64,000 bases of DNA, from NCBI GenBank assembly GCA_023898625.1, contig CP060231.1, positions 481,890 through 545,889 on the forward strand. Reading direction: 5' to 3'. The position numbers were made by a program, and so were the translations under genes. The notes under the pieces were generated by a model, which was given only the letters and a program-made list of their open reading frames with translations, ran no database searches and was not told the origin of the DNA. Below are positions 5,419 to 43,990 of this stretch, in pieces (positions within the stretch are counted from its first letter, which is position 1; every line of letters starts with the position of its first letter). Source of the DNA: Candidatus Nomurabacteria bacterium. Lineage in GTDB: Bacteria; Patescibacteriota; Saccharimonadia; Saccharimonadales; JAGQNJ01.

Positions 5419-5455
5419 AATTTGCTTTTGTAAAAACTAAAAACTAAACAAAAAA

Positions 5456-9710: not shown

Positions 9711-12700
9711 CTAATAAGCTTAAAAGTGTGACAGGATTTTTATTACGAGAAAAAGAAATACCTATTGCAGTAATCGTTGCATTGGGGCTCAGTGGATTAA
9801 CAATATTTATATATCTAAAAAATACCAAAACAGATCCCCCAAATGTTAAAAATTCAATTGCCATTGAGTCATCAGTCGTTCCCGAGTCAAATGCTTCAAT
9901 TGCTCAAAAAGGAGAATCTTTACAATGGAAAAAGAGTGTTGGTGTAAGTGGTAGTGTTGTTAATGTTGATGGAACTATCACAGAAAAAATTAACAAAGAT
10001 CAGCAAGTTTTTGATGGAGAACTAGAACTGCCAAAAGGATGGTCTGCCACATATTCTTGCGATGATGGCGTAAGTTTTGTTGCAACAACCACTACCTCAC
10101 CTTGCGTATCTGATGCTGACGTTGATTATATTAAAATTCAAACCGGAACATCCCAAACACTAAAGCCGTTCTCTCAGGCAGGGATGATCCTACCTCCCAA
10201 GGAAGTTGAGCTAGACAATGGTGCTTTTCATGGCATGGGGCCAATAATGTATAAAGACAAGTTCTATCAAATAATGCAGTCGGTAACAGTTCAAGACGCA
10301 GGTAGTCAAGATGATTTTACGATAAATTGTTTTGATCTAAAAGTATATTCTCAATGTGAAGGTTATCCTACGTATATGAGCACCTCAGTTGGGACTTTGG
10401 GTACCGGACCAAAGGATATAAATACTCCTATGGCTGGTCAATTTTATGTAGACGATGGAACGTACGGCAATGATGGACGACTTTACGTCGCTGGTCAGTC
10501 TGGCGCAAATTACGGTGTAGTATGTGTGGATTTAGTTTTGCAACAAAATTGCGGGTTCACTATTCTTGGGTCAACAGGTAGTACGTATGGTGGCGTGGAC
10601 AACCCGGTTAAGTTATCAGGGTTTGTTATGAGCGATGGAAAGCTATATGGTGACGCAGCAGATCTTGATCAAGCAAAACAAACAGTGGTTTGCTATGACT
10701 TAAATAGTGACGGAAATGGAGCTGATGCACCATGTTCTGGATATTCAAGCTCAACGACATTAAGTATTGATACATACTATACCCCAGAACATTACAACGT
10801 CTACTATAACGGCGGAACTCATATAGCCAAAGGTGGAAAACTATATTCATTATTACCTTATTCATATAAAAACATCTATGCAACCACCTTGTTTCCCCCT
10901 CCTAGTTCACAAAGATCTTATGGGTATATTCTAAGTTGCTTCGATTTAAATACTAAGGTGAAGTGTAGTGGATGGAATGACCCTGCTCTATTTTGGCCTA
11001 ACGGTGGAATGTTTATAAGCTCTGTTCGTATTCCTGGGATGTTTGCTTGGAAGAACACTGATAATTCATTACGCGCCGTGTGTTTGACGTATATTTTTGA
11101 CGAAGGAATACTCGATCCTCATATGCAGTGCCTTGATCAAGAGACAGGAGACAATATTCTTTCGAATGAAACCACTCCAGATCATCCCGTCAAGATGCTT
11201 CCTACGTCTTTGATGTATGCTCCTTGGGAGTTTGGTAGGTATACTACAGATATTACTGACAGCGAAGGATCAAAAACATACTTTCCGGTTGCAAAGCGTA
11301 TTTCTACGGACCCAAATAACCCATCTAAAGATAAAGGTGGAACCATGTGCTGGAATTGGACTACCGGATCAAAATGCTCAGGACAAGCATGGCAGAATCA
11401 GCCTAAGTACTGGTACGGAGTGAATAATAATCAGTCTAATGATCTTGGGTATGTTTATGATGGTTCTTGTATGTGGGGTGTGGGCGATAAGGCCGTTGGG
11501 GCAGGAAGTTGGGTGGTTAGTAATCCTAGGCTCTGGTCTTTTGACGCAAAAACCGGTGAAAGCCCTTGTCGTATTGAAGACATGGAATTTACGACAAGTA
11601 TAAATGCTGATGATTTTTATTGTGATGGTCAGAGTCATGTTTTTTCTTGGGGTAAAGTTAAATTAAGTAACGCGAGCATGTATGATTTCGATAGTCTTGA
11701 AGTAACAGTAAAGAACTCTGCTGGCACCGTTCTAAAACAAGAAAATATAAAAGCAAATGGATATCTAGATCTTTCCTCAATTAGTTATTCAGGAAACGAG
11801 AATCTTAAACTTGAAATAAAAGCTGTTAATCTAAATACTACTCCTTGGGCAAATAACAATAAACCTTTTGTTTCTGTAGAGGCAGATGCCGATAATGCTC
11901 AGATTTGTTACAAAACTAAAGCCACAAATTATTGCGACATTAGTAATATAGCCGTTACATCAGGCGCACAGATTGCAACAGGCAATGATATTCTTTCTAA
12001 AGACGAAACGACATCTATTGCCTTAAATCAACCCAGCAACGAACAATGCTTTAAGGATGCTAAAATTACGATTACTGCTGATAAACAGAGAATTTCAGAA
12101 GGCGAAAACGTAAGCTACCAAATAAATATTGACAACAAAGCAAACAGCAATATTTACAATCGAGGTAATATTGTTGGCGCTCAGGTTAGGGCTAGCTTGC
12201 CAGCAGGGTTTAGTTATGTGTCATCCAGTAATGGTGGGTATCAGTCGGGATCATACGTATATTGGGATAACGTATCGCTAAATGCTGGAAGTAATACAAC
12301 GTATTCATTGGTAGTTAAGGCGCCACAAAATTTGTCGTCAATTCAGAAGAGTACGGCAAATAAGGTATTCGCTGCCACAACAGATGTTCCCGCAGTCTTA
12401 ACAGCAACCATCATTTATGATGATGACGTTGATCAGGCTGACAACACAACTTCAAACCAAGTGACTTTGGTTAAAGAAATACCTGATAATGATGGTGGAC
12501 AAGTGGGAAACAATGGTGGAGAGGAGCCACCGGTAGATCAGGAGGCGCCTATTGATAATAACGAAACAACGCAAGACGATAATCAAGCAACAGGACTACC
12601 CCAATCATCAAACAATACCAATAATAATAAACCAAGTTTGATACCAGGGTTTATAAGAAGGTTGGTGCCAAATAGTTTGATGAATCAGACAGAGAGCATA

Positions 12701-14011
12701 TTTAGGTTTGCAAATTCAGTTGTTCAACCTATACCAAATACTGTTGCTATAGCTATACCGTATGCAATAATAGCCTTCCTGATCGCTTTTGTTGCGGTGT
12801 ATATTTATCAGGCAATAATAGCGAAGAGAGAAAAGGATAGATTGGATAAAGTAAGAAAAGACTTAAAAAGAACAGAAGAGCTAAGCCGTAATTACGTAAG
12901 TCTAACAACACATTATTTGCATACACCTATCGCAACAATGGAATCTACCATCGAACTTCTAGCCAAAGAGAATAAATTACCTAAGAGTACGGTTGATTCT
13001 GCAGAGCGCCGATTAGGGCGACTAAAATATCATATTCAGTTCTTATTAGACGGAATTAGTGGCATAGCAGAAAGTATTAAAGACCAGGCTGGACAAATTG
13101 AATCGAAAATAAAAAGACGATCATTGATAGGTAAAACCATTCTTATCCCAATATTTAGCGTTCTAATAGGGATTGTCTTTATTAATAGTTTATTCATTTG
13201 GTCTGGTAAATACGATGCGAGTCGTGCTGTAATCTTCACTCAGTCATTAAACTATTTATTGGCAACGGGTGCATTTGTGATTGCTTTTGTCGTGTATAGA
13301 AATCAAGCGTACGCACAGAAGGTTGCCGAACATGAGTTGAAACTAGAACAGGACTTATCGCTGTCGCAACTAAACTTTGTTAAAAATTCTAGTGCAACTT
13401 TAGATAAAGATATTGAAGAAATGAGTAGAATATCCAAAGAACTTGCCAATAGTCCTCGTGCTAAGCTATTTGACTCAGGACTAGTGTCACTAAAAGACCT
13501 AGCGTCAAAATTTGACTATCTGAGCATTCTGCAAAGTGAATCAAAGTCGCCAATTATAGCAGATGCTACTATAAAAAACCTTGCGTTAAATGTTGTCGAT
13601 GAACTTCAAGCCTTTGCTAACCAAAATAACATCAAGATAGAGTGCATTGTAGACTCTGGTCTGACGGCAAAAATCGATAAAGAAGGTCTAAATCAACTCC
13701 TGTACTCTACATTGCATAATGCCATCAAATTTAGCAAAGTAGGAGATATTGTTAAGCTATCGATCAATAATAGCGATACAAGGCATGTGGTTATAACGGT
13801 GAGCGATACGGGTAGTGGCATACCTAAGGAGAAGATTGATACGTTGATGATGCCTTTCGGTAGATTAACGAGTACTGAACAATTTGACTTCTCGGGAATT
13901 GGCCTTGATCTTTATATGGATAGATTAATAATCGATAAAGTTGGTGGTGAAATATCGATAGTCTCGAAATTAGGAGAGGGAACAAATATAAAAATGACCA
14001 TACCATCATAA
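9707..14011 (+). CDS. giant sensor histidine kinase (about 1000-aa ectodomain, atypical split kinase core)
   Basis: ATGA overlap with the esterase gene and an N-terminal TM helix. The ectodomain has Cys-containing repeats ('VVCVDL','VVCYDL','LSCFDL') and a DUF11-like repeat ('ITITADKQRISEGENVSYQINIDN...TYSLVVKAP'). The H-box is 'LTTHYLHTPIATMES'. The HATPase_c boxes are N 'HNAIKFS', G1 'DTGSGIP' and G2 'GIGLDL'. Confidence 0.8.
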   Translation: MTNKLKSVTGFLLREKEIPIAVIVALGLSGLTIFIYLKNTKTDPPNVKNSIAIESSVVPESNASIAQKGESLQWKKSVGVSGSVVNVDGTITEKINKDQQVFDGELELPKGWSATYSCDDGVSFVATTTTSPCVSDADVDYIKIQTGTSQTLKPFSQAGMILPPKEVELDNGAFHGMGPIMYKDKFYQIMQSVTVQDAGSQDDFTINCFDLKVYSQCEGYPTYMSTSVGTLGTGPKDINTPMAGQFYVDDGTYGNDGRLYVAGQSGANYGVVCVDLVLQQNCGFTILGSTGSTYGGVDNPVKLSGFVMSDGKLYGDAADLDQAKQTVVCYDLNSDGNGADAPCSGYSSSTTLSIDTYYTPEHYNVYYNGGTHIAKGGKLYSLLPYSYKNIYATTLFPPPSSQRSYGYILSCFDLNTKVKCSGWNDPALFWPNGGMFISSVRIPGMFAWKNTDNSLRAVCLTYIFDEGILDPHMQCLDQETGDNILSNETTPDHPVKMLPTSLMYAPWEFGRYTTDITDSEGSKTYFPVAKRISTDPNNPSKDKGGTMCWNWTTGSKCSGQAWQNQPKYWYGVNNNQSNDLGYVYDGSCMWGVGDKAVGAGSWVVSNPRLWSFDAKTGESPCRIEDMEFTTSINADDFYCDGQSHVFSWGKVKLSNASMYDFDSLEVTVKNSAGTVLKQENIKANGYLDLSSISYSGNENLKLEIKAVNLNTTPWANNNKPFVSVEADADNAQICYKTKATNYCDISNIAVTSGAQIATGNDILSKDETTSIALNQPSNEQCFKDAKITITADKQRISEGENVSYQINIDNKANSNIYNRGNIVGAQVRASLPAGFSYVSSSNGGYQSGSYVYWDNVSLNAGSNTTYSLVVKAPQNLSSIQKSTANKVFAATTDVPAVLTATIIYDDDVDQADNTTSNQVTLVKEIPDNDGGQVGNNGGEEPPVDQEAPIDNNETTQDDNQATGLPQSSNNTNNNKPSLIPGFIRRLVPNSLMNQTESIFRFANSVVQPIPNTVAIAIPYAIIAFLIAFVAVYIYQAIIAKREKDRLDKVRKDLKRTEELSRNYVSLTTHYLHTPIATMESTIELLAKENKLPKSTVDSAERRLGRLKYHIQFLLDGISGIAESIKDQAGQIESKIKRRSLIGKTILIPIFSVLIGIVFINSLFIWSGKYDASRAVIFTQSLNYLLATGAFVIAFVVYRNQAYAQKVAEHELKLEQDLSLSQLNFVKNSSATLDKDIEEMSRISKELANSPRAKLFDSGLVSLKDLASKFDYLSILQSESKSPIIADATIKNLALNVVDELQAFANQNNIKIECIVDSGLTAKIDKEGLNQLLYSTLHNAIKFSKVGDIVKLSINNSDTRHVVITVSDTGSGIPKEKIDTLMMPFGRLTSTEQFDFSGIGLDLYMDRLIIDKVGGEISIVSKLGEGTNIKMTIPS

Positions 14012-20092: not shown

Positions 20093-20124
20093 AAAAAAAT
20101 AGAGGTCCTCCCACCTCTATTTAA
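20093..20124. terminator. bidirectional intrinsic terminator between convergent genes
   Basis: Stem ATAGAGGT/ACCTCTAT (20099-20120) flanked by AAAAAAA upstream and TTTAAT downstream. Confidence 0.5.
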
Positions 20125-22067
20125 TATCCAATATCTCTAGTTGATACGGAGAGCTCTTCTAATCCAACAGATCTCAAGTAGTTATAAGTATTATCATAAT
20201 ATTCTTGTTTTCTTGTTGGGTCAGGTGGATAGTTGCCATGAGGTATGAAGATAACCATTCCTTGCCTAGCTCTTGTTAACAGTACGCGATATGCGTTTTT
20301 TGCTTCTTGTTGATTCGATTTGTTATTCTGCCAGACGATACCTTTTTCAATATTATTTTTTGAATTGAAATATTGCCACCCATCGTCATTAAAACGCATG
20401 TCTGCATCCCAGCAAAGGAGCGTGTAGTCAAGCTCTAGTCCTTGACAGACAAATTCTGATGCGGCATCTTCTAAGAAATACGAACTTTTATTACTCTCTT
20501 TACTCCCCAGAAAATAATGCACCTCGTTAACCTTCTTGTTTGAGTCTATCGCATATGGAATTAGTCTTTGGGCTCTGCTGGTTGCAACCATTCCAATTCT
20601 CTCTGTGCCCTTTGCTTGACTTCTAATCCATTTTTTTGCAAGCTTTAAGTCTCTCGTTATTCTGATGGGGTAGGTTTCTTTAAGGTCATTGTATATTTTA
20701 CTGGCTGAATCATCAATGTCTAAGAGTGCTTTGATAAAATGTGATAGTTTCTCTGATCTAAATGAGCGCATCGTTGTAGATAGATGAAGCTCTTTAATCT
20801 TCCTCGCACTTGCAGGTACTTTTGAAACGTTATACTCAGAGTCCATAATGTTTGGTGATATTGCAATTTGCCAATTTTCAGGAACGGCATCTATCCAGGC
20901 ACCGATACCTGCTTCTCCCTTTTTTAACTCTTGTCCACCGCCCACAAGACACACTATGCATGCCCAGTCATCATGTCTATCCATGGTGCTTATTAAAAAC
21001 CCAGGTTCTGATTCACCATGCACCCATTCTCTATTATTTCTATTCATCCAATTTGTAATTGTGTCACCGTCCCAAGCTCTTTGTGCTTCATCAAATATTG
21101 CGACATGCTCACTGGGTGCATTTATGTCTTTAATATACTCATCGCGGTAATGATGAACTATTTGAATGAAAGATTTTACTTTGTTCCTAGCATCGACAAT
21201 TTTGGTGCCATAACTACACTTATCATCTCTAGCTAATGCTTCCGTCAATACGTTAACTAACGGTCCATTACCCGACAGCAGTATAGCGTGGTCATTAGAA
21301 CTAAGATCCCGTTTTTGGGTTGCTATGTTTAACCCTACTAATGTTTTTCCTGCGCCGGGAACACCAGTCACAAAAATAATTACTTTTCTTTTATTCTTTT
21401 TACAATCTTCGATAATTTCGTTGATCTTTCGGCAAGTAGTGACGATATTATCTCCCGCTTCGTTTCTAGTAATCTCCTGAACGTTATGTCCTGAGTATAA
21501 GGCTTGAGCTGCCTCAATTATTGTAGGAGTTGGTTTATAGGGTGATTCTTCCCATCCATTCGCTCCAAATCCAGTGACGTATTCAATACTATCAACATAC
21601 TTCTTAATGCCATGTACACCAATACAGCAAACGCCTTCGATATTTTGTGACTCACCATAATAGTCAGACGCAATTAATACCGGGAATATATCTGCATTAT
21701 GTGATCCTAAGTGGAAATTTTTGAGTTCAAGCATATAATCTGTTACTTGATCTATATCCTTAGTTATAAATTTTTTCTGGCCAATTTTAAACTCTAAGAT
21801 TACTATATGAGGTTTATCTGAATGTATCAACAAGACAGAGTCTATTCTTTTACCCATTCGAGGAATTTTGAATTCCAAAAATATGGTTATATTTTTGGAA
21901 TACCGTAATTGGTTTTTTAATATTTCAATTTCTTTCTTCCATGTTTCAACTTGTGGTTGTTCAACACTGAAGCCGTCATTAACACTCCCTTGAGTTAAAT
22001 GACTAATAATAATATCAGTACTTTGTTCTAAAAAATCTGCCAATGATGATTTGTGCCATGCTCTCAT
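20121..22067 (-). CDS. DUF2075-like P-loop NTPase with N-terminal PD-(D/E)xK-like nuclease motif
   Basis: N-terminal 'RIDSVLL...HIVILEFKIGQK' follows the D...ExK pattern. Walker A is 'TGVPGAGKTLVG', Walker B is 'VAIFDEAQRAW', and the C-terminal 'YRVLLTRARQGMVIFIP' is SF1/UvrD_C-like. A TATAAT box lies 13 nt before the ATG. Confidence 0.65.
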   Translation of the reverse strand: MRAWHKSSLADFLEQSTDIIISHLTQGSVNDGFSVEQPQVETWKKEIEILKNQLRYSKNITIFLEFKIPRMGKRIDSVLLIHSDKPHIVILEFKIGQKKFITKDIDQVTDYMLELKNFHLGSHNADIFPVLIASDYYGESQNIEGVCCIGVHGIKKYVDSIEYVTGFGANGWEESPYKPTPTIIEAAQALYSGHNVQEITRNEAGDNIVTTCRKINEIIEDCKKNKRKVIIFVTGVPGAGKTLVGLNIATQKRDLSSNDHAILLSGNGPLVNVLTEALARDDKCSYGTKIVDARNKVKSFIQIVHHYRDEYIKDINAPSEHVAIFDEAQRAWDGDTITNWMNRNNREWVHGESEPGFLISTMDRHDDWACIVCLVGGGQELKKGEAGIGAWIDAVPENWQIAISPNIMDSEYNVSKVPASARKIKELHLSTTMRSFRSEKLSHFIKALLDIDDSASKIYNDLKETYPIRITRDLKLAKKWIRSQAKGTERIGMVATSRAQRLIPYAIDSNKKVNEVHYFLGSKESNKSSYFLEDAASEFVCQGLELDYTLLCWDADMRFNDDGWQYFNSKNNIEKGIVWQNNKSNQQEAKNAYRVLLTRARQGMVIFIPHGNYPPDPTRKQEYYDNTYNYLRSVGLEELSVSTRDIGY

Positions 22068-28774: not shown

Positions 28775-31172
28775 ATGAAAGACCTACTAACTAAGCTATC
28801 TATAACAAACAAAGTAAAAATTATAAACTATCTAGTACTATCCCTACTATTCACTATAACTACCCTTATACCATTAACTACCAGCACAGCCAATGCTACA
28901 CCACTACCTACTGATGTGCCTGAGCATGTGTTAAATATTGGTACTTCCGATGGAATATTAAACTCCCCCCAAGACATCACCACTGACTCCTCCGGCAATG
29001 TCTATGTAGTTGATATAGACACCAATCGCATCCAAAAGTTCGACTCCAATGGCACATTTCTTGCCAAGTGGGGCAGTAACGGTTCTGCTGATGGTCAGTT
29101 TAATGATCCTCGCAGCATCACCACCGACTCCTCCGGCAATGTCTATGTCGTAGATACCTACAACTACCGTATCCAGAAGTTCACCTCCACCGGCACCTTC
29201 CTAGCTAAGTGGGGAACATCTGGCTCGGCAGATGGTGAGTTTAGCTATCCTTCCGGCATTACCACCGACGCCTCTGGCAATGTCTATGTGACTGATATGG
29301 GCAACAACCGCATCCAAAAGTTCGACTCTACTGGCACCTTCCTAGCTAAGTGGGGAACATATGGCTCAGCAGATGGTGAGTTCCAATCTCCTTACGGCAT
29401 CACCACCGACTCCTCTGGTAATGTCTATGTGGCCGACTCTGGCAATGACCGCATCCAAAAGTTCAACCTTCCGGTACTTTCTAACCAAATGGGGCAGTAA
29501 TGGCTCGGCCGATGGTCAGTTCAGTAATCCTGACGGCATCACCACCGACTCCTCTGGCAATGTCTATGTAGCTGATTCGAGCAACAACCGCATCCAAAAG
29601 TTCAACTCTTCTGGCACCTTCCTAGCCAAGTGGGGCAGTAATGGCTCGGCCGATGGTCAGTTTAGCTCGCTTCGTGGCATCACCACCGACTCCTCTGGTA
29701 ATGTCTATGTGGCCGACTCTGGCAATGACCGCATCCAAAAGTTTGACTCCTCTGGAGATTTCCTACTTAAATTTGGTATGCCGAGTAGTGAAAACGGTAA
29801 ATTCTACTTCCCATATAGCATCACCACCGACTCCTCCGGCAATGTCTTCGTAGCAGATATTGGCAACAGCCGCATCCAAAAGTTCACCTCCACCGGCACC
29901 TTCCTAGCCAAATGGGGCAGTAATGGTTCAGCTGATGGTCAGTTCAATATACCTACTGACATCACCACCGACTCTTCCGGCAATGTCTATGTAGCAGATA
30001 CTTACAACAACCGCATCCAAAAGTTCGATTCTAACGGTACTTTCCTAACCAAATGGGGCACCTCTGGCTCAGCTGATGGTCAGTTTAGCTCTCCTTCTGG
30101 CATCACCACCGACTCCTCCGGCAATGTCTATGTGACTGATATGGATAACAGCCGCATCCAAAAGTTCAACTCCACCGGCACCTTCCTAGCCAAGTGGGGC
30201 AGTAATGGCTCAGGCGATGGAGAATTTAATGGTCCTTTCGGCATCACCACCGACTCCTCCGGCAATGTCTATGTGACTGATATTGGCAACAGCCGCATCC
30301 AAAAGTTCAACTCCTCCGGCACCTTCCTAGCCAAGTGGGGCAATAATGGCTCAGCCGATGGTGAGTTTAATACACCCCTAGGAATCACCACCGACTCTTC
30401 CGGCAATGTCTACGTGGCCGATACAGGCAACAACCGCATCCAAAAGTTCGATTCTTCTGGCACCTTCCTAGCCAAGTGGGGCAATAATGGCTCAGCCGAT
30501 GGTGAGTTTTACTATCCTTATGGCGTAGCATCTGACACTACAGACAGTATCTATGTAGCTGATTCTGGCAACAACCGCATCCAAAAGTTCGCCTACCCTA
30601 GCGAAGAACCTGAAACCCCAGAAGAACCTTCCTCCGACTCTGATGGTATCCCCGACACCATCGAAAACTCTTCCCCCAATAGTGGTGATGCTAACAATGA
30701 CGGTACACCAGATAGCACTCAAGCTAATGTAGCTAGCTATGTTAACCCAGTAACAAATAGCTATGTAGTACTCCAAACATCTAGTGAATGTAGTATCACT
30801 GCCACTACTACAACTAGTGAAGATAACCTAACTATAAAAGACTCTGGCTATAACTATCCAGTAGGACTAACTAACTTCACTACTGACTGTAACACCCCAG
30901 GCTTTACTGCTACCATAAATCTCTACTACTACAACCTAGATAGTACTAACTACACTCTAAGAAAACATAACCCTAACAATAACTCTTTCCTTACTATAGC
31001 TAACCCTACACTAACTAACCTAACTATAGACAATAAACCAGTAACCAAAGTAACCTACCAAGTTACTGACGGACAACAACTAGACATAGACAACACCACT
31101 AACGGAACCATAGTAGACCCAGTAGGCCTAGCTACACTAGCTGTAGGAAGTCCTAATACGGGGTTGAGATAG
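28775..31172 (+). pseudogene. 12-blade NHL-repeat surface protein, reading frame broken near 29465-29485
   Basis: ORFs 28775..29500 and 29361..31172 are one gene split by a net frameshift. Local sequence is GTTCAACCTTCCGGTACTTTCTAACC, whereas intact repeats read GTTCAACTCTTCTGGCACCTTCCTAGCC. There are 12 copies of '(G/S/D)ITTDSSGNVYV(A/V/T)D..N.RIQKF...G.F..KWG..GS.DG.F'. The C-terminus has a Pro/Glu linker, a beta-rich domain, and ends '...LAVGSPNTGLR*'. Confidence 0.65.
28960..30595 (+). repeat. tandem ~141-bp coding repeats (NHL blades)
   Basis: CATCACCACCGACTCCTC(C/T)GGCAATGTCTATGT recurs at about 141-bp spacing eleven times, plus one diverged copy. Confidence 0.85.
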
Positions 31173-31387
31173 AGCAAGATAAAACCATAAAAAGCTATTC
31201 TCTGAGGACTGTCCTCATAAAGAGGGAAAATATGGTGTAGTATAGTTTTGGGTGGATTCCTGAGAGATTGGGGGTGCGTATTATTTGCGAACAACGTAGG
31301 AATACTATAAGCAACACTATTGACAAAAGTGCAACAAATATGTAATATGACTACAATTAAGTAATGTGGTGGGACTAAGGTTGAGTG

Positions 31388-33133
31388 ATGTTTAAATCTT
31401 TTGTCCAAAAAATTCAGTTTCTTGTATTATTAACTTTATGTAGTTTTGTTTTTGGGTCTATCAGGAGTCCTCATGTACATGCTAGTGTACAGAATCCAAC
31501 TCCCCAAGCACAGGTATCGTTTACTTTTGATGATGGTGCTTCGAGCGTGTATAACAAGGCCGTTCCAACTTTAGCGCAATATGGGTTTACTGGTACAAGT
31601 TATGTTATTACCGGTTGTGTAGGTATGGTGACGGTTCCTAATAATTGTGAAGCAGATAACGATGTGCCGTATATGACATGGAGCCAGGTTGTTTCACTGC
31701 AAAATACTTATGGCTGGGAGGTTGGATCGCACGGGGTTAGTCATCAATTGATGTCTGAGATTTCAGCAAAAAAGATTGATAAAGAATTGTTAGATAGTAA
31801 AAACCAGTTAGTTGCACATGGGCTTAACGTTTCTTCTTTTGCCACACCTTACGGTGATTATAATCAAAAAGTTTTAGCAAATATTGCTAAATATTACTCT
31901 AGCCATCGCCCTTTCCATGATACCGGGTATAATCATTGGCCATATAATGATTATTTACTTCGCGTTCAGCAAGTTCAGGCTGGAGTGAGTGTCGATACTG
32001 TTAAGAGTTATATTGATCAAGCATCGAACGATGGAACGTGGTTAATTTTGGTATTCCATGATATCAGAGATGTGCCAAGCACCAACCCGGAGGATTACCA
32101 ATATAGCACTGCAGATTTATCTGCGATTGCCTCTTACATTAAAAGCAAAAATATTAAAGTGACGAATATTGATAAAGGGATTGTTAAGTCAGACGCAAGC
32201 GATAATTTGGTGGCATCACCTGATACGGGTAAAACTATTGGTGGTGGCTGGACAACCGATACGCCTAAGGCAGTAAAGATTGACGCAACATCTAAGGGTA
32301 GTAATCCTGATCCAGTAAAATCAATAAAGGTTACTGCAAATGCCAAGAAGAGTATACATGTCTTTACTCCATTAGTAACTATTCAGCCAAATGATCAATA
32401 TGTGGTTAAAGGCTATATTAATTTGGATAAGAATTCAAAAGGTGTCGGATTGTATATCGATGAATACGATGCCAGTGGCAATTGGATTAGTGGGCAGTAT
32501 AAGCAAACAATTAATACTTGGTATGACAAAGATATTTCATTTATGTACGTTGCTAGCTCGAGCTCAGTAGCTTGTGCTCGCTTACAGATTATTGTTACAG
32601 CAAATTCTGGTGTTAAAGTTTACATTGATAACGTTAGATGGTTTGTCGCTGTTAGTGGCCCTGCCCCAGATCCGGAATTAGTGAATTTGCTTACCAATGG
32701 TGATTTTGAGCAAGGCTTGACTGGTTGGAGTATTGATGATCCTGCCATATCTTTAGATACTGCAAATAACGGAACATCGCCAACGCCCGTGAATTCCATA
32801 AAACTAACTAACATTGAAGACCGAAGCGTACAACTATTTTCGTCAAAGGTTAACGTAATAAATTCTAAAACCTACAATATCAATGCAGATATGAATGTAC
32901 TGTCTTTGAATGCGAACGGTGAAATAGGTTTTTATATCGATGAATACGATACCAGTGGCAATTGGATTAGCGGACAGTACCTATATACAGTAAGACAAAA
33001 TGGGTTAAATAAAGTTGATTTTTCATATACTCCAACCTCTATAAATGTTGCTTCATCTAGCTTGCAGGTTATCGTGTCTAAAGGTATTGGCACCGTAGCA
33101 TATCTAGATAACGTGAAATTCACCACTGCATGA
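31388..33133 (+). CDS. secreted polysaccharide deacetylase (NodB/CE4 domain) with two duplicated C-terminal carbohydrate-binding-like domains
   Basis: Signal peptide, then the NodB motifs 'SFTFDDGASS' and 'GSHGVSH'. An internal duplication is marked by near-identical 'G(L/F)YIDEYD(A/T)SGNWISGQY' (DNA around 32452-32500 and 32932-32980). Confidence 0.75.
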   Translation: MFKSFVQKIQFLVLLTLCSFVFGSIRSPHVHASVQNPTPQAQVSFTFDDGASSVYNKAVPTLAQYGFTGTSYVITGCVGMVTVPNNCEADNDVPYMTWSQVVSLQNTYGWEVGSHGVSHQLMSEISAKKIDKELLDSKNQLVAHGLNVSSFATPYGDYNQKVLANIAKYYSSHRPFHDTGYNHWPYNDYLLRVQQVQAGVSVDTVKSYIDQASNDGTWLILVFHDIRDVPSTNPEDYQYSTADLSAIASYIKSKNIKVTNIDKGIVKSDASDNLVASPDTGKTIGGGWTTDTPKAVKIDATSKGSNPDPVKSIKVTANAKKSIHVFTPLVTIQPNDQYVVKGYINLDKNSKGVGLYIDEYDASGNWISGQYKQTINTWYDKDISFMYVASSSSVACARLQIIVTANSGVKVYIDNVRWFVAVSGPAPDPELVNLLTNGDFEQGLTGWSIDDPAISLDTANNGTSPTPVNSIKLTNIEDRSVQLFSSKVNVINSKTYNINADMNVLSLNANGEIGFYIDEYDTSGNWISGQYLYTVRQNGLNKVDFSYTPTSINVASSSLQVIVSKGIGTVAYLDNVKFTTA

Positions 33134-33201
33134 GCAGTACAATCACACAATAACATTTACAAACCTGCACTAAAGTAGTAAAATACATTGTGTACAAGCG
33201 T

Positions 33202-33226
33202 GAGGGTCGTTTGGCCCTCTTTTTTG
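33202..33226 (+). terminator. intrinsic terminator after the deacetylase gene
   Basis: GAGGGTC-GTTT-GGCCCTC followed by TTTTTTG. Confidence 0.65.
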
Positions 33227-33273
33227 TTGGCTAAATTACCATCACGTGTCTTAACAAGCAAAGGAGAGACATT

Positions 33274-33441
33274 ATGTACGAAGGTGGTAAAGGCGCTGGT
33301 GCCGTTGTAGCTGGTAGTGTTGTTCTACCAAATACCGGTGGAAGCCAAATACTAACTGCAATTGCAGTAACCAGTATTGCTGTGGGCGTAGTGATTGTTA
33401 TTTCAACAATTGTACGTTTTGCAGTAAATAAGGCTCGATAG
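33274..33441 (+). CDS. 55-aa micro-protein consisting of a bare LPNTG sorting signal
   Basis: Not in the ORF track. AAGGAG (33261-33266) lies 7 nt before the ATG. Translation: MYEGGKGAGAVVAGSVVLPNTGGSQILTAIAVTSIAVGVVIVISTIVRFAVNKAR. An in-frame stop lies 13 codons upstream. A sortase gene starts 45 nt downstream. Confidence 0.55.
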   Translation: MYEGGKGAGAVVAGSVVLPNTGGSQILTAIAVTSIAVGVVIVISTIVRFAVNKAR

Positions 33442-33455
33442 GGCCAGAACGAGGG

Positions 33456-33486
33456 GGGTAGCGTTAATGCGCTACCCTTTAGTTTT
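33456..33486 (+). promoter_or_regulatory. hairpin plus T-rich tract between micro-ORF and sortase (partial terminator or attenuator)
   Basis: GGGTAGCG-TTAATG-CGCTACCC followed by TTTAGTTTT, ending at the sortase ATG. Confidence 0.4.
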
Positions 33487-34104
33487 ATGAAGAATAAGTT
33501 ACGTATTTTAATTGCGATATTTGGACTGTTCTTACTTCTTGTTGGGTCGTGGATACTAATGAAGGGTAGCTACGTGGATGAGGAATATAAGTATATACCT
33601 ACCCAGGCTGAAGCACTCAGACAGGATAGTGGAAGTTCGGTAAATAAGACGCAAGCCACACCCAGTAATTCGCCCAATTCCAATTTGTCTGGCTATCCAG
33701 TCCGTATTGTGTTGCCGGATGTGAATATTGATATTGGGGTCGCAAAAGGCTATTACAATAGCTCTACAAAGAAATGGACTATTAGTCGGGACAAAGCTTA
33801 TTATGCTGTGATGACTAAACGACCAAATACTGAAGGTGGAAACACCTTTATTTATGGACATAATAGATCAAATGTTTTTTCAAGGTTGCTGAAGATAAAA
33901 TCTGGAAGCATAGCTACCATAACAACAGACAATAACAAGAAGTTTGTTTATCAACTAGAACGTTCTTATACCACAAATCCAAACGACAGCGGAATTCTTA
34001 ATTACGAAGGCGACCCCATACTAACCCTACAAACCTGCTCTGGAGCAAATTTTCAACATCGAACATTATATATTTTTAAACTTATTAAGGTAAAAAATGC
34101 TTAA
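33487..34104 (+). CDS. sortase (compact, single N-terminal TM)
   Basis: TM helix 'ILIAIFGLFLLLVGSWIL'. The catalytic motifs are His 'FIYGHNRSN', Cys 'PILTLQTCSG' and Arg 'QHRTLYIF'. Confidence 0.8.
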   Translation: MKNKLRILIAIFGLFLLLVGSWILMKGSYVDEEYKYIPTQAEALRQDSGSSVNKTQATPSNSPNSNLSGYPVRIVLPDVNIDIGVAKGYYNSSTKKWTISRDKAYYAVMTKRPNTEGGNTFIYGHNRSNVFSRLLKIKSGSIATITTDNNKKFVYQLERSYTTNPNDSGILNYEGDPILTLQTCSGANFQHRTLYIFKLIKVKNA

Positions 34105-35356
34105 AGATGTATTATTTTACACGTTTGCTTTCATAGCAATTCTGAATACAATTCATTTTGGGTTATATATAGCTGGTGCAAATTTTTACGATATTCGTGA
34201 GGCGTTACGAAAGAAAAAGCCACATAAAAAGCAAAGAGGATTAAGGCCATTACTAACCTTAGTGATTCCAGCTCATAATGAGGAGGCAGGAATAGTAAGG
34301 ACTCTAGAATCAGTTCGAAAAAATACGTACCGTAAGTTACAAATTTTGGTTGTCGACGATGCGTCTACCGACAATACACGTGGCTTGGTTTGGCGATACA
34401 TAAATGAACACCCACATATGAATATTCAGCTAGTCTGTATGAAAAAAAATGTCGGTAAGGGAGAGGCTATGAATTATGCCTTACGACATTTTGCGAAAGG
34501 TGATTTATTAATGACTCTCGATGCTGATTCTTTGTTGGCTCGCCGGTCAATTAATAATGCCGTTAAGCATTTTGATGATCCAAACATTGTCGGTTTGGCT
34601 GCTAATGTCAGGGTGCTTGATGACGGAAGTGTGTTGAGTTTAATACAAAAATTTGAACATATGATTGGTTATCGTTCAAAGAAGTTTTATACATTAACCA
34701 ATAGTGAATTTATTATAGGTGGAGTGGCGTCAACTTATCGTATGAATGTAATTCGAGAATCAGGATATTATGATACAGATACACAAACCGAGGATATAGG
34801 TTTAAGTATGAAGTTAACATCAAAAGGAAATACTCAACAGAAAATTATCTATGGGTCTGACGTATTGGCATTAACTGAGGGCGTACAAAGCTACAAAGCT
34901 CTTTTTAAACAGCGTTATCGTTGGAAACTCGGCATGTTACAGAATCTATTAAAATATAAATCTATGGTTGGAAATCCTAGCTCAATGTATAGTAAAACAT
35001 TAACATATTATAGGCTCCCTATGGCATTCACTAGCGAGATTATTTTATTAGTAGAACCTATTCTGTTAATTTATGTAATATATTTGAGCATTATTAATAA
35101 AAATCCATATGCATTGGTCGGAGCATATTTAACAATAACTTTATATATACTGTGGAGCCTCTGGCCTGATGAATATTTGTTGCGTAAAAGCAAGATTCGA
35201 TTGAGTCTATATGCGCCATTTATGTATTTTATGTTTTATGTAATGAATGCCGTTCAGTTGGTTGCAGTTTTGCGATGTATTAAGAATTATAAAAAAGTGT
35301 TGAGAAAAGTTAAAACTGGTGGGGCATGGACATCGCCGGCTAGAGCAACAAATTAG
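34097..35356 (+). CDS. processive family-2 glycosyltransferase (PgaC/IcaA/NodC/cellulose-synthase-like)
   Basis: Overlaps the sortase stop by 8 nt. Motifs are 'VIPAHNEE', 'VVDDASTDNT', 'TLDADS', 'TEDIGLS' and 'QRYRWKLG' (QxxRW). One N-terminal and three or more C-terminal TM helices. Confidence 0.8.
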   Translation: MLKDVLFYTFAFIAILNTIHFGLYIAGANFYDIREALRKKKPHKKQRGLRPLLTLVIPAHNEEAGIVRTLESVRKNTYRKLQILVVDDASTDNTRGLVWRYINEHPHMNIQLVCMKKNVGKGEAMNYALRHFAKGDLLMTLDADSLLARRSINNAVKHFDDPNIVGLAANVRVLDDGSVLSLIQKFEHMIGYRSKKFYTLTNSEFIIGGVASTYRMNVIRESGYYDTDTQTEDIGLSMKLTSKGNTQQKIIYGSDVLALTEGVQSYKALFKQRYRWKLGMLQNLLKYKSMVGNPSSMYSKTLTYYRLPMAFTSEIILLVEPILLIYVIYLSIINKNPYALVGAYLTITLYILWSLWPDEYLLRKSKIRLSLYAPFMYFMFYVMNAVQLVAVLRCIKNYKKVLRKVKTGGAWTSPARATN

Positions 35357-35359
35357 TTA

Positions 35360-36880
35360 TTAAAATTCATGCATGACAGATATCTTAGCGCCTAATGAAT
35401 TAAATCGATCAGCTAGATCTTCATACCCGCGATTAATCGTATAGACATTACGCAACATACTTACTCCACTGCCAGCGAGCATTCCAATCAGAATAATGAC
35501 TGCTGGTCGGATACCGCTAGGTGCTACCATGTCTGCTGGCTTGAATCGTGTTGGGCCATCTACGTACAGGCGATGTGGATCGGCAAGCTCCAATTTTACT
35601 CCAATTTTTTTCATTTCCGTGAACATTAATGCCCTATCTTCATACACCCAATCATGAATCAATGTTCTGCCATGCGCAACAGCAACTATTGGTACAAAGT
35701 AGGGTAGATGGTCGATGTTGAGGCCGGGGAACGGTCTGCCATAAATTTTTTCAGCTGGAGCAATCAATTTGCCATTATGTTTATGAATTGTAATATCGAT
35801 TAAATCAGTCTGGTTGTTGTTTGCCTTATATATCTTAGATTTATCAAACTTGAGACCCATTTTTTCTAGCTTAAGAAGCTCTAGTTCGAGAAAATCAATC
35901 GGTACTCGTTTTATGGTGATTGACGAATTTGTAACAATTGAAGCCGTAATAAACGTCATTGCCTCAACAGGGTCTTCACTTGGATAATAGGTGACGTTTT
36001 TCTTGATATTTTTGATGCCACGAATTCTTAGAGTGCTTGTTCCTATGCCGTCTATTTTTACGCCCAAACGTCTCAAGAAAAAGCAGATATCTTGAACCAT
36101 ATAATTGGCGCTGGCCATTTTTATGATAGTTTCACCATCAAAACGAGAGGCTGCCATGAGGATGTTTTCTGTTGTGGTATCGCCAGATTCATACAATACT
36201 ATTGGCTCTGTGGGTTGTTTTTTCTGCACAGTCACTTTATATACACCTGTCTTTGTGTCAACAGATACCCCAAACTCTTCAAGAGCGTATAAGTGGGGTA
36301 GAACAGTACGTTTGCCTAGCTCACAACCCCCTGCGTAAGGAATATCAAACCTCGTCATTAAATGCATTAATGGCCCCATTAACATAATTACGCTTCTGGT
36401 GCGTCGGGCCGCAGATTTATCAATATTGTCTATGTTAAGTTTTTCTGGAGGTTTGATCTCGATATCATTGCCAATCCAGCGCACAGCTACACCAATACTT
36501 CGTAAAACCTCTATAATTCTGTTAACTTCTTCAATGTGTGGCGCACTTTTAATGCGAGTCGTACCTTTGTTTAATAAGCTTGCACAAAGTAGGGCTACTG
36601 TAGCATTCTTAGAGCTTTTGACTGAAATTTCTCCATGTAGCTCATGACCACCCTCAACTCTTAAATTGATTGCACCACTTGAAATGTTTATCAAAGGCTT
36701 GTTAAGTACATCACTAATACGTGCCAAATAATCTAGGCTTAAGTTTTGGCCACCATGCTCAATGCGATTAACGGCAGATTGGCTAGTTTTTAGCTGTTTA
36801 GCAAACTCCGCTTGGGTTAAGCCTCGTTCTTGCCTTATTTGATAAATAAGCTTGCCGATTTTTTCGTTATTCGATTGCAT
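35360..36880 (-). CDS. murA: UDP-N-acetylglucosamine 1-carboxyvinyltransferase with N-terminal XRE-type HTH domain
   Basis: Residues 1-65, 'IRQERGLTQAEFAKQLKTSQSAVNRIEHG', form an HTH_3 domain. The remainder is MurA: 'SSKNATVALLCASLL' and the catalytic-loop Cys in 'YAGGCELGKRTV'. 506 aa against roughly 420 for a typical MurA. Confidence 0.85.
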   Translation of the reverse strand: MQSNNEKIGKLIYQIRQERGLTQAEFAKQLKTSQSAVNRIEHGGQNLSLDYLARISDVLNKPLINISSGAINLRVEGGHELHGEISVKSSKNATVALLCASLLNKGTTRIKSAPHIEEVNRIIEVLRSIGVAVRWIGNDIEIKPPEKLNIDNIDKSAARRTRSVIMLMGPLMHLMTRFDIPYAGGCELGKRTVLPHLYALEEFGVSVDTKTGVYKVTVQKKQPTEPIVLYESGDTTTENILMAASRFDGETIIKMASANYMVQDICFFLRRLGVKIDGIGTSTLRIRGIKNIKKNVTYYPSEDPVEAMTFITASIVTNSSITIKRVPIDFLELELLKLEKMGLKFDKSKIYKANNNQTDLIDITIHKHNGKLIAPAEKIYGRPFPGLNIDHLPYFVPIVAVAHGRTLIHDWVYEDRALMFTEMKKIGVKLELADPHRLYVDGPTRFKPADMVAPSGIRPAVIILIGMLAGSGVSMLRNVYTINRGYEDLADRFNSLGAKISVMHEF

Positions 36881-41521: not shown

Positions 41522-42949
41522 TTAATCCGGGAATGACTCTTGATAACTACTGATAGTCCAAGTTCGGTTTCCTGATGATAATTCAGTTCCAAAGGTGACG
41601 GTTCCAGCGCCGCTTAAGTCGATGGTTTGGCCAGCGGCTGCACCGATATTTCCACTACCGCCAATGGTAATTTTTCCCCAGTAAGATTGAAAAATCATGC
41701 CAGGCAAGTTAGCTGCACCACCTACTGAAACAGTTTGTAGGGTTTGACTATTCTTTAGATCGTTACCCGATAAGCTAGTACAGTTTGGGTTACAGCTAGC
41801 ATTTGTCTTAAAACTAATAAAATGTGCTCCAGTACCCGAGGAGTTAGATATTATCTGCGCCGAACCACCTGTAGTTATGTTGCCATCAGTAATAATCATT
41901 GGTCGGGTTGTGCCAACTCCGTCGGCAATTCTTACCTTTGCGGCGCCATTGATTGTCAGGTTTCCAGTGATGTATACATTGCCATTAATGGTTACATCAC
42001 AACTGCCTCCTATGGTTACGTTTCCTGTTAGCTCTAAATTAGCAGGCCAGGTTCGAGTGAACGGCCAATTTTTACAAACGTAAGTGTTGCTATTACCGGA
42101 TCCTGTAGTTGTTACTGATGCAATTTGTCCCGCTCGGTCATAACTCGGTGGCTGTACTGGTGGTGCGGTACAGCCAGTTTTAAGGCCTTCACCGGTGCTT
42201 CCTGGCAAAATGTTTCCGCTAGGGTTTCCGCTAGGGTAATTATTACTAGTCTGGTTGGTTGCACAGACCGTTCCGTAGATAGCCGTACTCCAAGCTGTAG
42301 AGATTGGCTGACCAGAAGAACAAACCGTTGGATAGGTTGGTCCAGGGTTGTTTCCGGCAGGACAAGAATTATAGGCCACATTTACATTAACGGGTTGCGC
42401 ATAAGTCCCAATTTTAGCAGATCCATTCATTGTTATGGTACCGTTAACGTAGACATCTGAGTTTGTGATATTTGCACTACCTCCAAGTATTAGCCCTCCT
42501 GGCCCAGAATGTACTGAATATCCGGTTGAGCTTGTCCCAACTATGGTTACTTTAACAATACGCGTTCCAATTGGGTTTGTTGTTTGATTGTAGCGATAAA
42601 CTTTTCCTGTTGAAGTAATAATCTTAGCGTTAGTATCACCAGGATCGTCGGTCACCGTTGAGGTATAAACTCCTCGACCCTGGGTAGTGTTATTGAAGAA
42701 AACCTGTTCAGTTGTATCACCAGTAAAATTCTCATTTTGATTTAACTGAAGCATTGCTTGTTCTACTCCAGCTTCGGCTACCATCAAAGAGTTGGCGGTG
42801 TAAACTTTGTTGTTGCTGATGGTAAATTGACTAATAGATAGGCTAGCTATCGAAAATCCTATAATAATCAGAACGCCCGCAATAATCATAATACTAATGA
42901 GTAGCATTCCATTTTGGTTTTTGTTAAGGCTGTTTGCTTTCTTAATCAT
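41522..42949 (-). CDS. large PilX-like minor pilin / pilus-tip protein with beta-helix-like repeats
   Basis: The N-terminal hydrophobic helix 'GMLLISIMIIAGVLIIIGFSIASLSISQ' and 'AEAGVEQAM' are PilX_N-like. The repeats include 'GSANITNSDVYVNGTITMNGSAKIG', 'GNVTIGGSCDVTINGNVYITGNLTINGAAKV' and 'ITDGNITTGGSAQI'. Confidence 0.5.
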   Translation of the reverse strand: MIKKANSLNKNQNGMLLISIMIIAGVLIIIGFSIASLSISQFTISNNKVYTANSLMVAEAGVEQAMLQLNQNENFTGDTTEQVFFNNTTQGRGVYTSTVTDDPGDTNAKIITSTGKVYRYNQTTNPIGTRIVKVTIVGTSSTGYSVHSGPGGLILGGSANITNSDVYVNGTITMNGSAKIGTYAQPVNVNVAYNSCPAGNNPGPTYPTVCSSGQPISTAWSTAIYGTVCATNQTSNNYPSGNPSGNILPGSTGEGLKTGCTAPPVQPPSYDRAGQIASVTTTGSGNSNTYVCKNWPFTRTWPANLELTGNVTIGGSCDVTINGNVYITGNLTINGAAKVRIADGVGTTRPMIITDGNITTGGSAQIISNSSGTGAHFISFKTNASCNPNCTSLSGNDLKNSQTLQTVSVGGAANLPGMIFQSYWGKITIGGSGNIGAAAGQTIDLSGAGTVTFGTELSSGNRTWTISSYQESFPD

Positions 42950-43601
42950 TTCTAAACACCATTCTTGTTGAATATTCTACTGATAGTGGTTGACCATAAG
43001 AAGTCTTTTGTAGTTTAACAAATAATTCGACAGACCGTGCTTCTGTGGGTGTCACTTCTGCGTTTTGGTCGTTATAGTATTTGACCTGGAATGTCTCAAT
43101 ATTACTTAACAATTTTCTGTCAGCGGGACATGTTTCGGTCGCCTGGGGTGGTGGGCAGGTAGTTTTTGTGGTATTTCCAGAAACGTCATTTGCTAAAGTG
43201 CGCTTATACAGAGTGCCGTTGTCTAGATAGTAAACATTGTTATCTTTTTCAGAAATATACAGTGCGGGGTCTGCAAAAATAATATCACCATTAGTATCTT
43301 CTACTGCTGTGGCTAAAATTAATGTATCAGAGTCTGAAAGCCAGCTTAGTTTATCATCAGGGGCTCCAGGTGCATTATCATCAGATATTCTGTTATTAAG
43401 ATCGGCATTGCCCGATAGCCTTATATCATTGTTAATAACATCTAAACCTGCTTGAGCTTCGTTGAGCAGATCCGTTCTTACTTCAGTCTTAGCATATTGA
43501 ACCAAGCTGTTCATAGCAAAAGTCAACACTACTCCCATAAGTAAGGCTGTCAGGCCGATCGTTATCATAAGCTCTACCAAGGTAAATCCGTTATCTTTCA
43601 T
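42942..43601 (-). CDS. prepilin-type N-terminal cleavage/methylation domain protein (PilW/GspJ-like minor pilin)
   Basis: 'MKDNGFTLVELMITIGLTALLMGVV' matches the G|FTLxE class III signal. Confidence 0.7.
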   Translation of the reverse strand: MKDNGFTLVELMITIGLTALLMGVVLTFAMNSLVQYAKTEVRTDLLNEAQAGLDVINNDIRLSGNADLNNRISDDNAPGAPDDKLSWLSDSDTLILATAVEDTNGDIIFADPALYISEKDNNVYYLDNGTLYKRTLANDVSGNTTKTTCPPPQATETCPADRKLLSNIETFQVKYYNDQNAEVTPTEARSVELFVKLQKTSYGQPLSVEYSTRMVFRND

Positions 43602-43990
43602 TGCGCGATTCCGATTACTCCTATTAATGAGCTTAAGTTTACATTTTTAGTTTGTCCTTCATAACTATATGTAACGGTTACGTCGACTCTTTTTAGTCCC
43701 GGTGAAGGCTCAGTAACGGCTACACTTCCTGTGCTTCCGGTTGGCAGATCAACTAGCTGGTCACTAAAGTCAATGTTTTGACCAGCGGTTAAATTGTTAT
43801 AGTTAATATTGCGTAATGATTCGATTTCTTTTTGCGCTGACCTAGTCGCACTTTCTAAATAGGCTGTTTTGACTTGTATACGCTGAATGCTGATGAAAAT
43901 ACTACTAAGCCCCATAAATACAATACCGATGACTACTATTGTCACTAAAAGCTCGGGTAGTGTAAAGCCATGTAAGTTTGCGCGAATCAT
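43598..43990 (-). CDS. prepilin-type minor pilin (PilV/GspI-like)
   Basis: 'ANLHGFTLPELLVTIVVIGIVFMGL'. There is an ATGA overlap with the next gene. Confidence 0.7.
   Translation of the reverse strand: MIRANLHGFTLPELLVTIVVIGIVFMGLSSIFISIQRIQVKTAYLESATRSAQKEIESLRNINYNNLTAGQNIDFSDQLVDLPTGSTGSVAVTEPSPGLKRVDVTVTYSYEGQTKNVNLSSLIGVIGIAQ

Follow-up and report, generated by a model that had tools for sequence, protein, structure and literature searches.

A conserved 55-residue LPNTG micro-protein encoded upstream of a sortase in Saccharibacteria is a candidate sortase substrate without a signal peptide

We describe a short open reading frame (ORF) found in a 64,000-nucleotide (nt) stretch of DNA from a Candidatus Nomurabacteria bacterium (GTDB class Saccharimonadia, order Saccharimonadales; assembly GCA_023898625.1, contig CP060231.1, positions 481,890 to 545,889 of the forward strand), which from here on we call the window. 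This micro-ORF, located at 33274..33441 on the plus strand of the window, encodes 55 amino acids (aa) that amount to a cell-wall sorting signal with almost no cargo, and the next gene encodes a sortase. We find that the micro-ORF is a genuine, conserved gene under purifying selection, and that it is inherited with one sortase lineage. The interpretation that we favor, with a probability of about 0.55, is that the micro-protein is a dedicated sortase substrate that uses no signal peptide, and whose head is ligated to an amine of the envelope. This suggests that in Saccharibacteria (TM7), which are tiny epibiotic bacteria, what is covalently attached to the envelope is a short peptide and not a protein.

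The micro-ORF starts with an ATG at 33274, has 55 codons, ends with a TAG at 33439-33441, and its translation is MYEGGKGAGAVVAGSVVLPNTGGSQILTAIAVTSIAVGVVIVISTIVRFAVNKAR. The ORF had been proposed in an initial annotation together with a Shine-Dalgarno (SD) sequence, AAGGAG, at 33261..33266 (+), 7 nt before the ATG, and with an in-frame stop 13 codons upstream of it. The sequence agrees on all counts: the frame is open for just 13 codons 5′ of M1. The same annotation described the product as a sorting signal in three parts that has next to no cargo and lacks a signal peptide, and this is borne out both by the window sequence and by the layout of 60 family members presented below. The head, residues 1-17 (MYEGGKGAGAVVAGSVV; 33274..33324, +), is predicted to be extracytoplasmic, and it is the portion that would be transferred together with LPNT. 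Next comes the LPNTG sortase motif, residues 18-22 (33325..33339, +), with the predicted scissile bond T21|G22 falling between 33336 and 33337, then a transmembrane (TM) helix at about residues 24-47 (33343..33414, +) with a conserved face formed by L27-A31-I35-G38-I41-T45, and finally the basic cytoplasmic tail RFAVNKAR (33415..33438, +). With 17 residues before the motif and no n, h, and c regions, the micro-protein has neither an N-terminal Sec signal peptide nor a passenger domain. We found no specific model for it in Pfam or NCBIfam.

A first search with the 55-aa product reports 28 near-full-length homologs of 55-85 aa (most of them 55-58 aa) at 66-95% identity, among which M1, Y2, G5, G14, L18, P19, T21, G22, G23, and G38 are invariant. 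We also scanned with a profile of the sortase, keeping one genome per species. The resulting 80 loci, with sortase identities of 34-94%, all come from Candidatus Saccharibacteria or from Saccharimonadales metagenome-assembled genomes (MAGs), and since two of them are cut at the sortase, 78 are informative. In 74 of these 78, the sortase is immediately preceded, on its own strand, by an ORF of 51-72 aa with this layout, and the genomic pairing proposed from the window alone holds in almost every sampled species of Saccharibacteria. The other four loci have an LPxTG protein of about 180 aa with a signal peptide (two loci) or nothing (two loci) in that place.

Conservation next to the sortase and the ratio of non-synonymous to synonymous substitutions (dN/dS) were two of the tests suggested in the initial annotation, and both turn out positive. 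The dN/dS values between the window micro-ORF and its relatives range from 0.09 to 0.37. By segments, the ratio is 0.09 for the head, 0 for LPNTGG (where the proportion of synonymous differences, pS, is 0.51 and there is not one non-synonymous change), and 0.32 for the TM helix and tail. Across the family, the L, P, T, and G of the motif use every synonymous codon available, and Tyr2 uses both of its own (TAC 43 times, TAT 9 times).

A profile search of 5.8 billion proteins yields 197 clusters, nearly all of 55-62 aa, and an exhaustive HMMER search of 1.84 billion representatives (at 50% identity) yields 254 matches. The best 150 of those 254 are all 48-139 aa long and mostly align from residue 1, and just one of these 150 is longer than 100 aa and aligned right up to its own C-terminus (P0229, nominally 139 aa, match 85-138). 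Hits that are micro-sized and that match from residue 1 imply a dedicated family of micro-proteins, the members of which are not C-terminal parts of longer proteins. In public records, its members go by the names "hypothetical protein" or "LPXTG-motif cell wall-anchored protein".

The layout of the family is very regular. The following statistics come from 60 distinct members, and the residue conservation of the motif and the TM helix from 127 sequences. The head before the motif is 10-28 aa long (median 18), it never has more than one K/R or more than one D/E in the 60 members, and its composition is dominated by G (20%), A (18%), V (16%), T (11%), and S (7%). Residue 2 is a Tyr in 51 members, and 56 have a Tyr among the first six residues. 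Ser and Thr together appear 1-9 times per head in 56 members, and in the other four they do not appear at all. A Lys is found in 27 of the 60 heads and is absent from 33, and within the clade of the window Lys6 is nearly invariant. The motif is LPNTG in 41 of 60, and the remainder are LPATG, LPSTG, LPKTG, and single variants; its P and T are invariant, and its L and G are above 95%. The motif sits 5-8 residues before an uncharged hydrophobic stretch of 19-26 residues, which in 60/60 members is followed by a K/R-containing tail (2-7 K/R, usually 3-4, with an acidic tail residue in five members). G38 is kept in 124 of the 127 sequences, and conservation along the TM helix is periodic at 100 degrees (moment 5.71 vs. 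2.79 in shuffles, p = 0.012), a pattern that suggests a specific helix-helix contact through the conserved face. One subclade has two tandem sortase-type motifs (MYNSTKGL-LPATG-AAVL-MPKTG...), as observed in loci L034 (5681-5851), L046 (5725-5895), and L073 (approximately 5617-5766).

The sortase gene (33487..34104, +; Pfam Sortase PF04203, E = 1.3e-17) encodes 205 aa with an N-terminal TM helix and a catalytic domain. Its ATG at 33487 comes 45 nt after the stop of the micro-ORF, and His125, Cys184, and Arg192 are invariant in 34 homologs, in agreement with the intact His/Cys/Arg sortase at that distance already noted in the initial annotation. In the sortase TM helix, Gly20 is near-invariant. 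The AlphaFold2 (AF2) model of the sortase has a predicted local distance difference test score (pLDDT) of 86, places a helix at 2-28, and matches sortase structures with E-values of about 1e-9 to 1e-10. Neither sequence nor fold assigns it to a class: no NCBIfam sortase class reaches its cut-off (the best is the SrtD model at 41 vs. 140 bits, with C, D, and F far below), and in fold it shows no clear preference among classes A, C, D, and E (15-22% identity). We conclude that this is an unclassified sortase lineage, found here only in Saccharibacteria.

The window contains a second substrate-sortase pair at 3724-6517 (+). There, the substrate has 564 aa, a signal peptide, and an ending of VPNTG plus TM helix plus basic tail; it gives only a weak partial NCBIfam match, possibly beta-helix/autotransporter-like, and no Pfam hit. 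The second sortase (5456-6517, 353 aa) has a long N-terminal extension and is class-F-like (103 bits, cut-off 166). With at least two substrate-sortase pairs in the genome, and with the other sortase having its own 564-aa substrate, the sortase of the micro-ORF looks dedicated to it. That head types are clade-specific on the sortase tree (an approximate neighbor-joining, NJ, tree) supports the same pairing.

How is the micro-ORF expressed? A promoter at 33156..33184 (+) has the -35 hexamer TTTACA (33156-33161), a 17-nt spacer, and the -10 hexamer TAAAAT (33179-33184), a match in 10 of 12 positions. Both hexamers are invariant in seven related loci, and the flanks vary. A match of at least 10/12 at 62-136 nt upstream of the ATG is found in 49 of 58 loci vs. 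2.6% of random 170-nt windows drawn from the same loci, and the -35 is TTTACA in 48 of the 58 vs. 1.5% of the control windows. In essentially all loci, the 20 nt that precede the ATG include a strong SD (AAGGAG, GGAGG, or a close variant).

Between promoter and ATG there is a structured 5′ leader of about 89 nt (33185..33273, +), which includes the hairpin GAGGGTC-GTTT-GGCCCTC (33202-33219), a U-run (33220-33225), and a CACGTG (33243-33248). The hairpin with its T-run has a folding free energy (dG) of -16.5 (z -3.6). In the initial annotation, the segment 33202-33226 was taken for the terminator of the previous gene. The hairpin and the T-run are indeed there, but they lie 3′ of the conserved promoter, hence within the leader of the micro-ORF, and are not solely a terminator of the preceding gene. 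The hairpin is retained in L004 and L007 with changes in arm and loop, loci with a divergent upstream gene have comparable leader hairpins with U-runs too, and leaders of 60-130 nt with stable folds are found in most loci. In another clade, the leader hairpin shows compensatory (covarying) pairs and a conserved CACGUGA loop. This covariation holds at the level of the clade only; a global alignment across clades is too divergent for one consensus structure. A GAGGGT-type 5′ arm recurs in many clades (leaders were noted in L008, L013-L015, L023, L026, L030, L035, and others), CACGTG recurs in the loop of the leader hairpin or just 3′ of it, and some leaders end in an attenuator-like U-run. We discarded a known riboswitch or leader in the 5′ untranslated region: Rfam has no match for the leader (the only hit in the window is Termite-leu, E = 0.63, 17.6 vs. 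51 bits), and 11 loci reported tRNAs only. The leader may thus be an undescribed cis-regulatory RNA, and its hairpin could be an attenuator or an mRNA stabilizer.

A second terminator-like hairpin, missed in the initial annotation, lies between the micro-ORF and the sortase (33453..33486, +). The hairpin proper (33453-33480) has 12 pairs, a dG of -22.3, and a z of -4.8, with none of 200 shuffles equally stable, and its U-rich tail runs into the sortase start codon. A hairpin with a T-run in this position is observed in about 44 of 60 loci, and in about 40 none of 30 random windows taken from that locus reaches its strength. No obvious SD precedes the sortase ATG, and the hairpin before it has an SD-like 5′ arm (GAGGGGGG). 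In the window, the micro-ORF and the sortase share the same frame, with the TAG and 15 sense codons in between (33439-33489). We rejected programmed read-through into the sortase, because the same in-frame arrangement occurs in 15 of 60 loci, which is the level expected by chance. Such a series of elements, in which a strong promoter and a structured leader lead up to a strong SD and a short ORF, and a terminator-like hairpin stands in front of the enzyme genes, is what one would expect for a structural product made in abundance, and from this anatomy we infer limited read-through into its processing enzyme.

The mechanism that we propose is as follows. Transcription would start at the near-consensus promoter of the micro-ORF and run through the structured leader, and most transcripts would probably stop at the hairpin before the sortase, leaving the peptide in large excess over the enzyme. 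The 55-aa product would then insert in the membrane N-out/C-in without Sec targeting, in the manner of the Pf3 coat protein via YidC. This is the orientation predicted by the positive-inside rule for a short near-uncharged N-tail and a basic C-tail. Short uncharged N-tails can be translocated even if there is no Sec signal, of which Pf3 coat with YidC is an example, and YidC-only N-out proteins of this kind have about 45-55 aa, no signal peptide, a near-uncharged N-tail of about 18 residues, one TM segment, and a basic C-tail. The micro-protein, with its short low-charge N-tail, single TM helix, and positive C-terminal flank, fits this description, and its lack of a signal peptide is no paradox. 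Pf3 coat, on the other hand, is a phage structural protein with no sortase processing and no sequence kinship to the micro-protein. An internal contrast comes from the two loci with heads of about 140 residues, both of which carry classical signal peptides.

N-out insertion would put the LPNTG just outside the membrane, and the conserved TM face with its near-invariant Gly may dock to a membrane partner such as the N-terminal TM helix of the sortase. The sortase would cut at T21|G22, and the 21-residue head MYEGGKGAGAVVAGSVVLPNT would be transferred through the carboxyl of the Thr to a primary amine of the envelope. The likeliest acceptor, by analogy with housekeeping sortases, would be lipid II or the stem peptide of peptidoglycan. 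The outcome would be a wall bearing a dense layer of short flexible peptides rich in Gly, Ala, Val, and Thr, with no folded protein. As a synthetic substrate for the sortase, we propose the peptide Abz-GSVVLPNTGGSQ-Dnp.

The genes next to the pair are polysaccharide genes, as had been remarked in the initial annotation. Immediately downstream there is a GT2 membrane glycosyltransferase of the PgaC/IcaA-like type (34097..35356, +; Pfam Glycos_transf_2, E = 1.4e-27; 150 bits against TIGR03937 PgaC_IcaA, cut-off 422), the start of which overlaps the sortase stop by 8 nt. Upstream lies the gene for a polysaccharide deacetylase of family CE4 that is secreted and extended by a long stretch at its C-terminus (31385..33133, +; Pfam Polysacc_deac_1, E = 1.1e-19). 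The survey extends the link to the lineage: a GT2 ortholog is directly downstream of the sortase in 57 of the 80 loci and immediately upstream of the pair in two more, and a CE4 homolog is found within a few kb of the sortase in 67 of 80. In a subclade without the GT2 ortholog, another GT2 and a small CE4 flank the micro-ORF/sortase pair. Genes for MurA with a helix-turn-helix (HTH) domain, GlyA, and MurB follow in many loci. With a PgaC-like synthase and a CE4 as conserved neighbors, the peptide layer would seem to function jointly with a partly de-N-acetylated exopolysaccharide, and both ligation to peptidoglycan or lipid II and a link to the adjacent polysaccharide machinery, two of the roles raised in the initial annotation, are plausible.

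Several observations weigh against the micro-protein being a dedicated substrate ligated to the envelope. Translation, membrane topology, cleavage, and acceptor are all predictions from sequence, and we know of no signal-peptide-less sortase substrate that has been demonstrated. The hidden Markov models (HMMs) of the LPXTG signal score the micro-protein below their cut-offs (PF00746, 17.1 vs. 20 bits; TIGR01167, 12.9 vs. 15.9). The head sequence is highly variable between clades, so any sequence-specific function must be clade-local. The conserved face of the TM helix is more than a disposable anchor needs, and it also fits a partner or a regulator. And the hairpin with a U-run within the leader could lower expression instead of raising it.

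In comparison with the classical LPXTG substrates (such as protein A with SrtA, and those modeled by PF00746 and TIGR01167), the micro-protein shares the LPxTG, the hydrophobic helix, and the basic tail, and its enzyme is likewise a His-Cys-Arg sortase, with a predicted cut after the Thr and transfer to an envelope amine. It differs in having 55 aa without signal peptide or passenger, sub-cut-off scores for the signal HMMs, a conserved TM face, a promoter, leader, and terminator of its own, and a sortase of no defined class. The earlier remark that the pair does not fit classical protein display stands. In the searchable literature on sortases of Saccharibacteria, TM7, and Patescibacteria, and on signal-peptide-less LPXTG or YidC proteins, we found the family undescribed. 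What is new is a cargo-less sortase micro-substrate without a signal peptide across the sampled Saccharibacteria, and what is known is the type of working of a sortase and its substrate.

Could the peptide instead be a glycan carrier or linker, with the sortase building a peptide-polysaccharide conjugate? We consider this possible but unlikely. In one version, the head (at Tyr2, or at a Ser or Thr) is glycosylated with the GT2/CE4 polymer, and the sortase fixes the glycopeptide to peptidoglycan; in another, the sortase ligates the peptide directly to the free glucosamine (GlcN) amines of the de-N-acetylated polymer. The overlap of GT2 and sortase, the recurrence of GT2 and CE4 next to the pair (including the subclade without the GT2 ortholog, where another GT2 and a small CE4 are flanking), and the frequency of Ser, Thr, and an early Tyr in the heads are all on its side. 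Sortase A takes amino-sugars as nucleophiles in vitro. A sortase-anchored glycoprotein carrier has a precedent in GspA of Actinomyces oris, which we take to be about 290 aa. In the GspA-LcpA-SrtA system, bringing a glycan to the wall seems to be the main task of the substrate, which is genetically linked to glycan machinery, and the recombinant GspA construct consists of residues 31-256, without signal peptide and sorting signal (PMC6381275). However, GspA has a signal peptide and is glycosylated by an enzyme of the LCP (LytR-CpsA-Psr) type, whereas the micro-ORF locus has no LCP gene, and has instead a PgaC-like GT2 and a CE4. Moreover, PgaC-like synthases require no protein primer, no protein-acting glycosyltransferase was identified, four of the 60 heads have no Ser or Thr, and adjacency to murA/murB fits a generic envelope island equally well. 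We give still less credit to a more specific proposal, in which the sortase-ligated 21-residue peptide would be a covalent adaptor from peptidoglycan to a partly de-N-acetylated GlcNAc-type exopolysaccharide made by GT2 and CE4; the peptide would be glycosylated, or amide-ligated to the GlcN amines, it would be inserted without a signal peptide, and it would replace the role that LCP enzymes have in other Gram-positive-type envelopes. Slightly more doubtful yet is a micro-protein that is not consumed at all, but acts as a sortase-associated membrane factor, with its TM helix bound to the sortase or the GT2 and the motif as a pseudo-substrate in the active site, in order to stabilize, localize, or gate the enzyme, analogous to SafA of Actinobacteria or to IcaD/PgaD of the poly-N-acetylglucosamine (PNAG) synthases. 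The conserved TM face with helical periodicity and near-invariant Gly, together with Gly20 of the sortase TM helix, speak for it. SafA, a 52-aa TM protein of Actinobacteria encoded next to srtA, binds the TM segment of SrtA (PMC9282373), and as with SafA, we have a single-TM micro-protein (about 50 aa) that is genetically tied to a sortase gene lineage-wide, and for which a contact with the sortase TM helix is plausible. But SafA is encoded immediately downstream of srtA, its motifs are an N-terminal PGP and an exoplasmic FPW, LPxTG is absent from it, and it is a signal-peptidase antagonist (PMC9282373). The micro-ORF is upstream of its sortase and has an LPNTG; we found neither FPW nor PGP in the window protein, nor in the family alignments as far as their displayed rows and consensus show. 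Cleavability would be superfluous in a mere binder, yet the cleavable LPxTG is kept with zero non-synonymous change. Moreover, with a strong promoter of its own and a terminator ahead of the sortase, the micro-protein is predicted to be in large excess over the enzyme, which suits a substrate better than a 1:1 partner.

Two further explanations have even less in their favor. In one, which we regard as very improbable, the peptide is ligated to itself: the carboxyl of Thr21 would be joined to another copy, at the N-terminal amine or the Lys6 of the latter, producing a linear polymer or mini-pilus, or else to its own N-terminus, producing a 21-residue macrocycle, so that the product would be a polymer of a ribosomally made peptide, or a cyclic one. 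The gene order, in which a small precursor comes first and a terminator-like hairpin separates it from the processing enzyme, resembles that of operons of pilins and of ribosomally synthesized and post-translationally modified peptides (RiPPs), and the recurrent N-terminal MY (51 of 60 members) and the Lys6 of the window's clade point in the same direction. As with the pilins assembled by class C sortases, the substrate gene adjoins a dedicated sortase, and the subunit is expected in excess of the enzyme. Those pilins, however, have a pilin-motif Lys and an Ig-like (CnaB-type) fold, while the heads have no YPKN-type motif, and 17 aa cannot hold a domain; and the sortase here has neither the lid nor the C-terminal TM helix of class C, only an N-terminal one. 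We rejected Lys6 as a pilin-type nucleophile, given the heads without any Lys, which equally weakens a Lys-linked form of the polymerized mini-subunit contemplated in the initial annotation. To our knowledge, an N-terminal Met or Tyr is not a usual sortase nucleophile, and a secondary-metabolite cluster, being variable, would not be expected to pass vertically and almost universally through the lineage next to murA/murB, as this pair does. A recent paper on pili of the candidate phyla radiation (CPR) deals with donor-strand-exchange pilins, which are unrelated to the micro-protein. The last explanation, that the micro-ORF is what decay has left of the C-terminus of a longer, complete LPxTG protein, or else a functionless chance ORF, is almost certainly wrong. 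It could appeal to the NHL-repeat protein encoded nearby, which ends in a truncated SPNTGLR, and to the two of 78 loci in which a signal-peptide LPxTG protein of about 180 aa occupies the same position (L069, 5431-5964; L078, 1019-1561). These long forms, the syntenic full-length proteins that a remnant would call for, are Ser/Thr/Asn/Gly-rich low-complexity LPETG or LPVTG proteins with heads of about 140 residues. In the approximate NJ tree of sortase domains, they cluster together and are nested, not basal, and homology to the micro-protein beyond the motif is not detectable (hhalign probability 5%). The ORF, with its own SD, start codon, and promoter, is conserved in 74 species under purifying selection, and longer proteins with a match at their own C-terminal end reduce to P0229 among the best 150 profile matches. 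Conservation, selection, tree, and profile searches together effectively refute the remnant and the chance ORF.

Sortases are understood as displaying folded Sec-exported proteins or as building pili. In the Saccharibacteria, which are epibiotic and in part host-associated, an entire class has retained a sortase paired with a near-bare sorting signal that has no export signal, and the gene for that substrate looks, from its sequence, built for very high expression. If the peptide is indeed ligated to the wall, this would be a new use of sortases, for the decoration or linkage of the envelope with peptides, and a new entry into the sortase pathway that is independent of a signal peptide. It would probably also be an abundant surface component in organisms where the surface governs attachment to host bacteria. 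Several Saccharibacteria are now culturable and genetically tractable, which makes the idea directly testable. ORF length cut-offs hide this conserved envelope gene from routine annotation.

Other features of the window and its relatives are worth recording. The CE4 homolog of locus L081 has a weak CBM_4_9 match. MurA in the window (35360-36880, -) has an N-terminal XRE-type HTH, a fusion that is seen by Pfam domains in the window and in loci L081 and L082, and a homolog of the whole HTH-MurA is at the same position in 39 of the 80 loci. The peptidoglycan type (Lys or diaminopimelate, DAP) is not readable from the window, which contains MurD and FolC, and no MurE. The NHL-repeat surface-protein gene (28775-31172, +) is split by a frameshift near 29470-29500 and includes a choice-of-anchor U domain; its product ends in ...SPNTGLR* without a TM helix, and the same ending is found in locus L001, so that it looks like a truncated or degenerate sorting signal. 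Finally, the regions 42942-43990 (-), 20121-22067 (-), and 9707-14011 (+) include among them two type IV pilin-like genes (N_methyl motif), a Schlafen-group-3-like helicase, and a 1434-aa protein with a DUF11 and a C-terminal HATPase_c domain.

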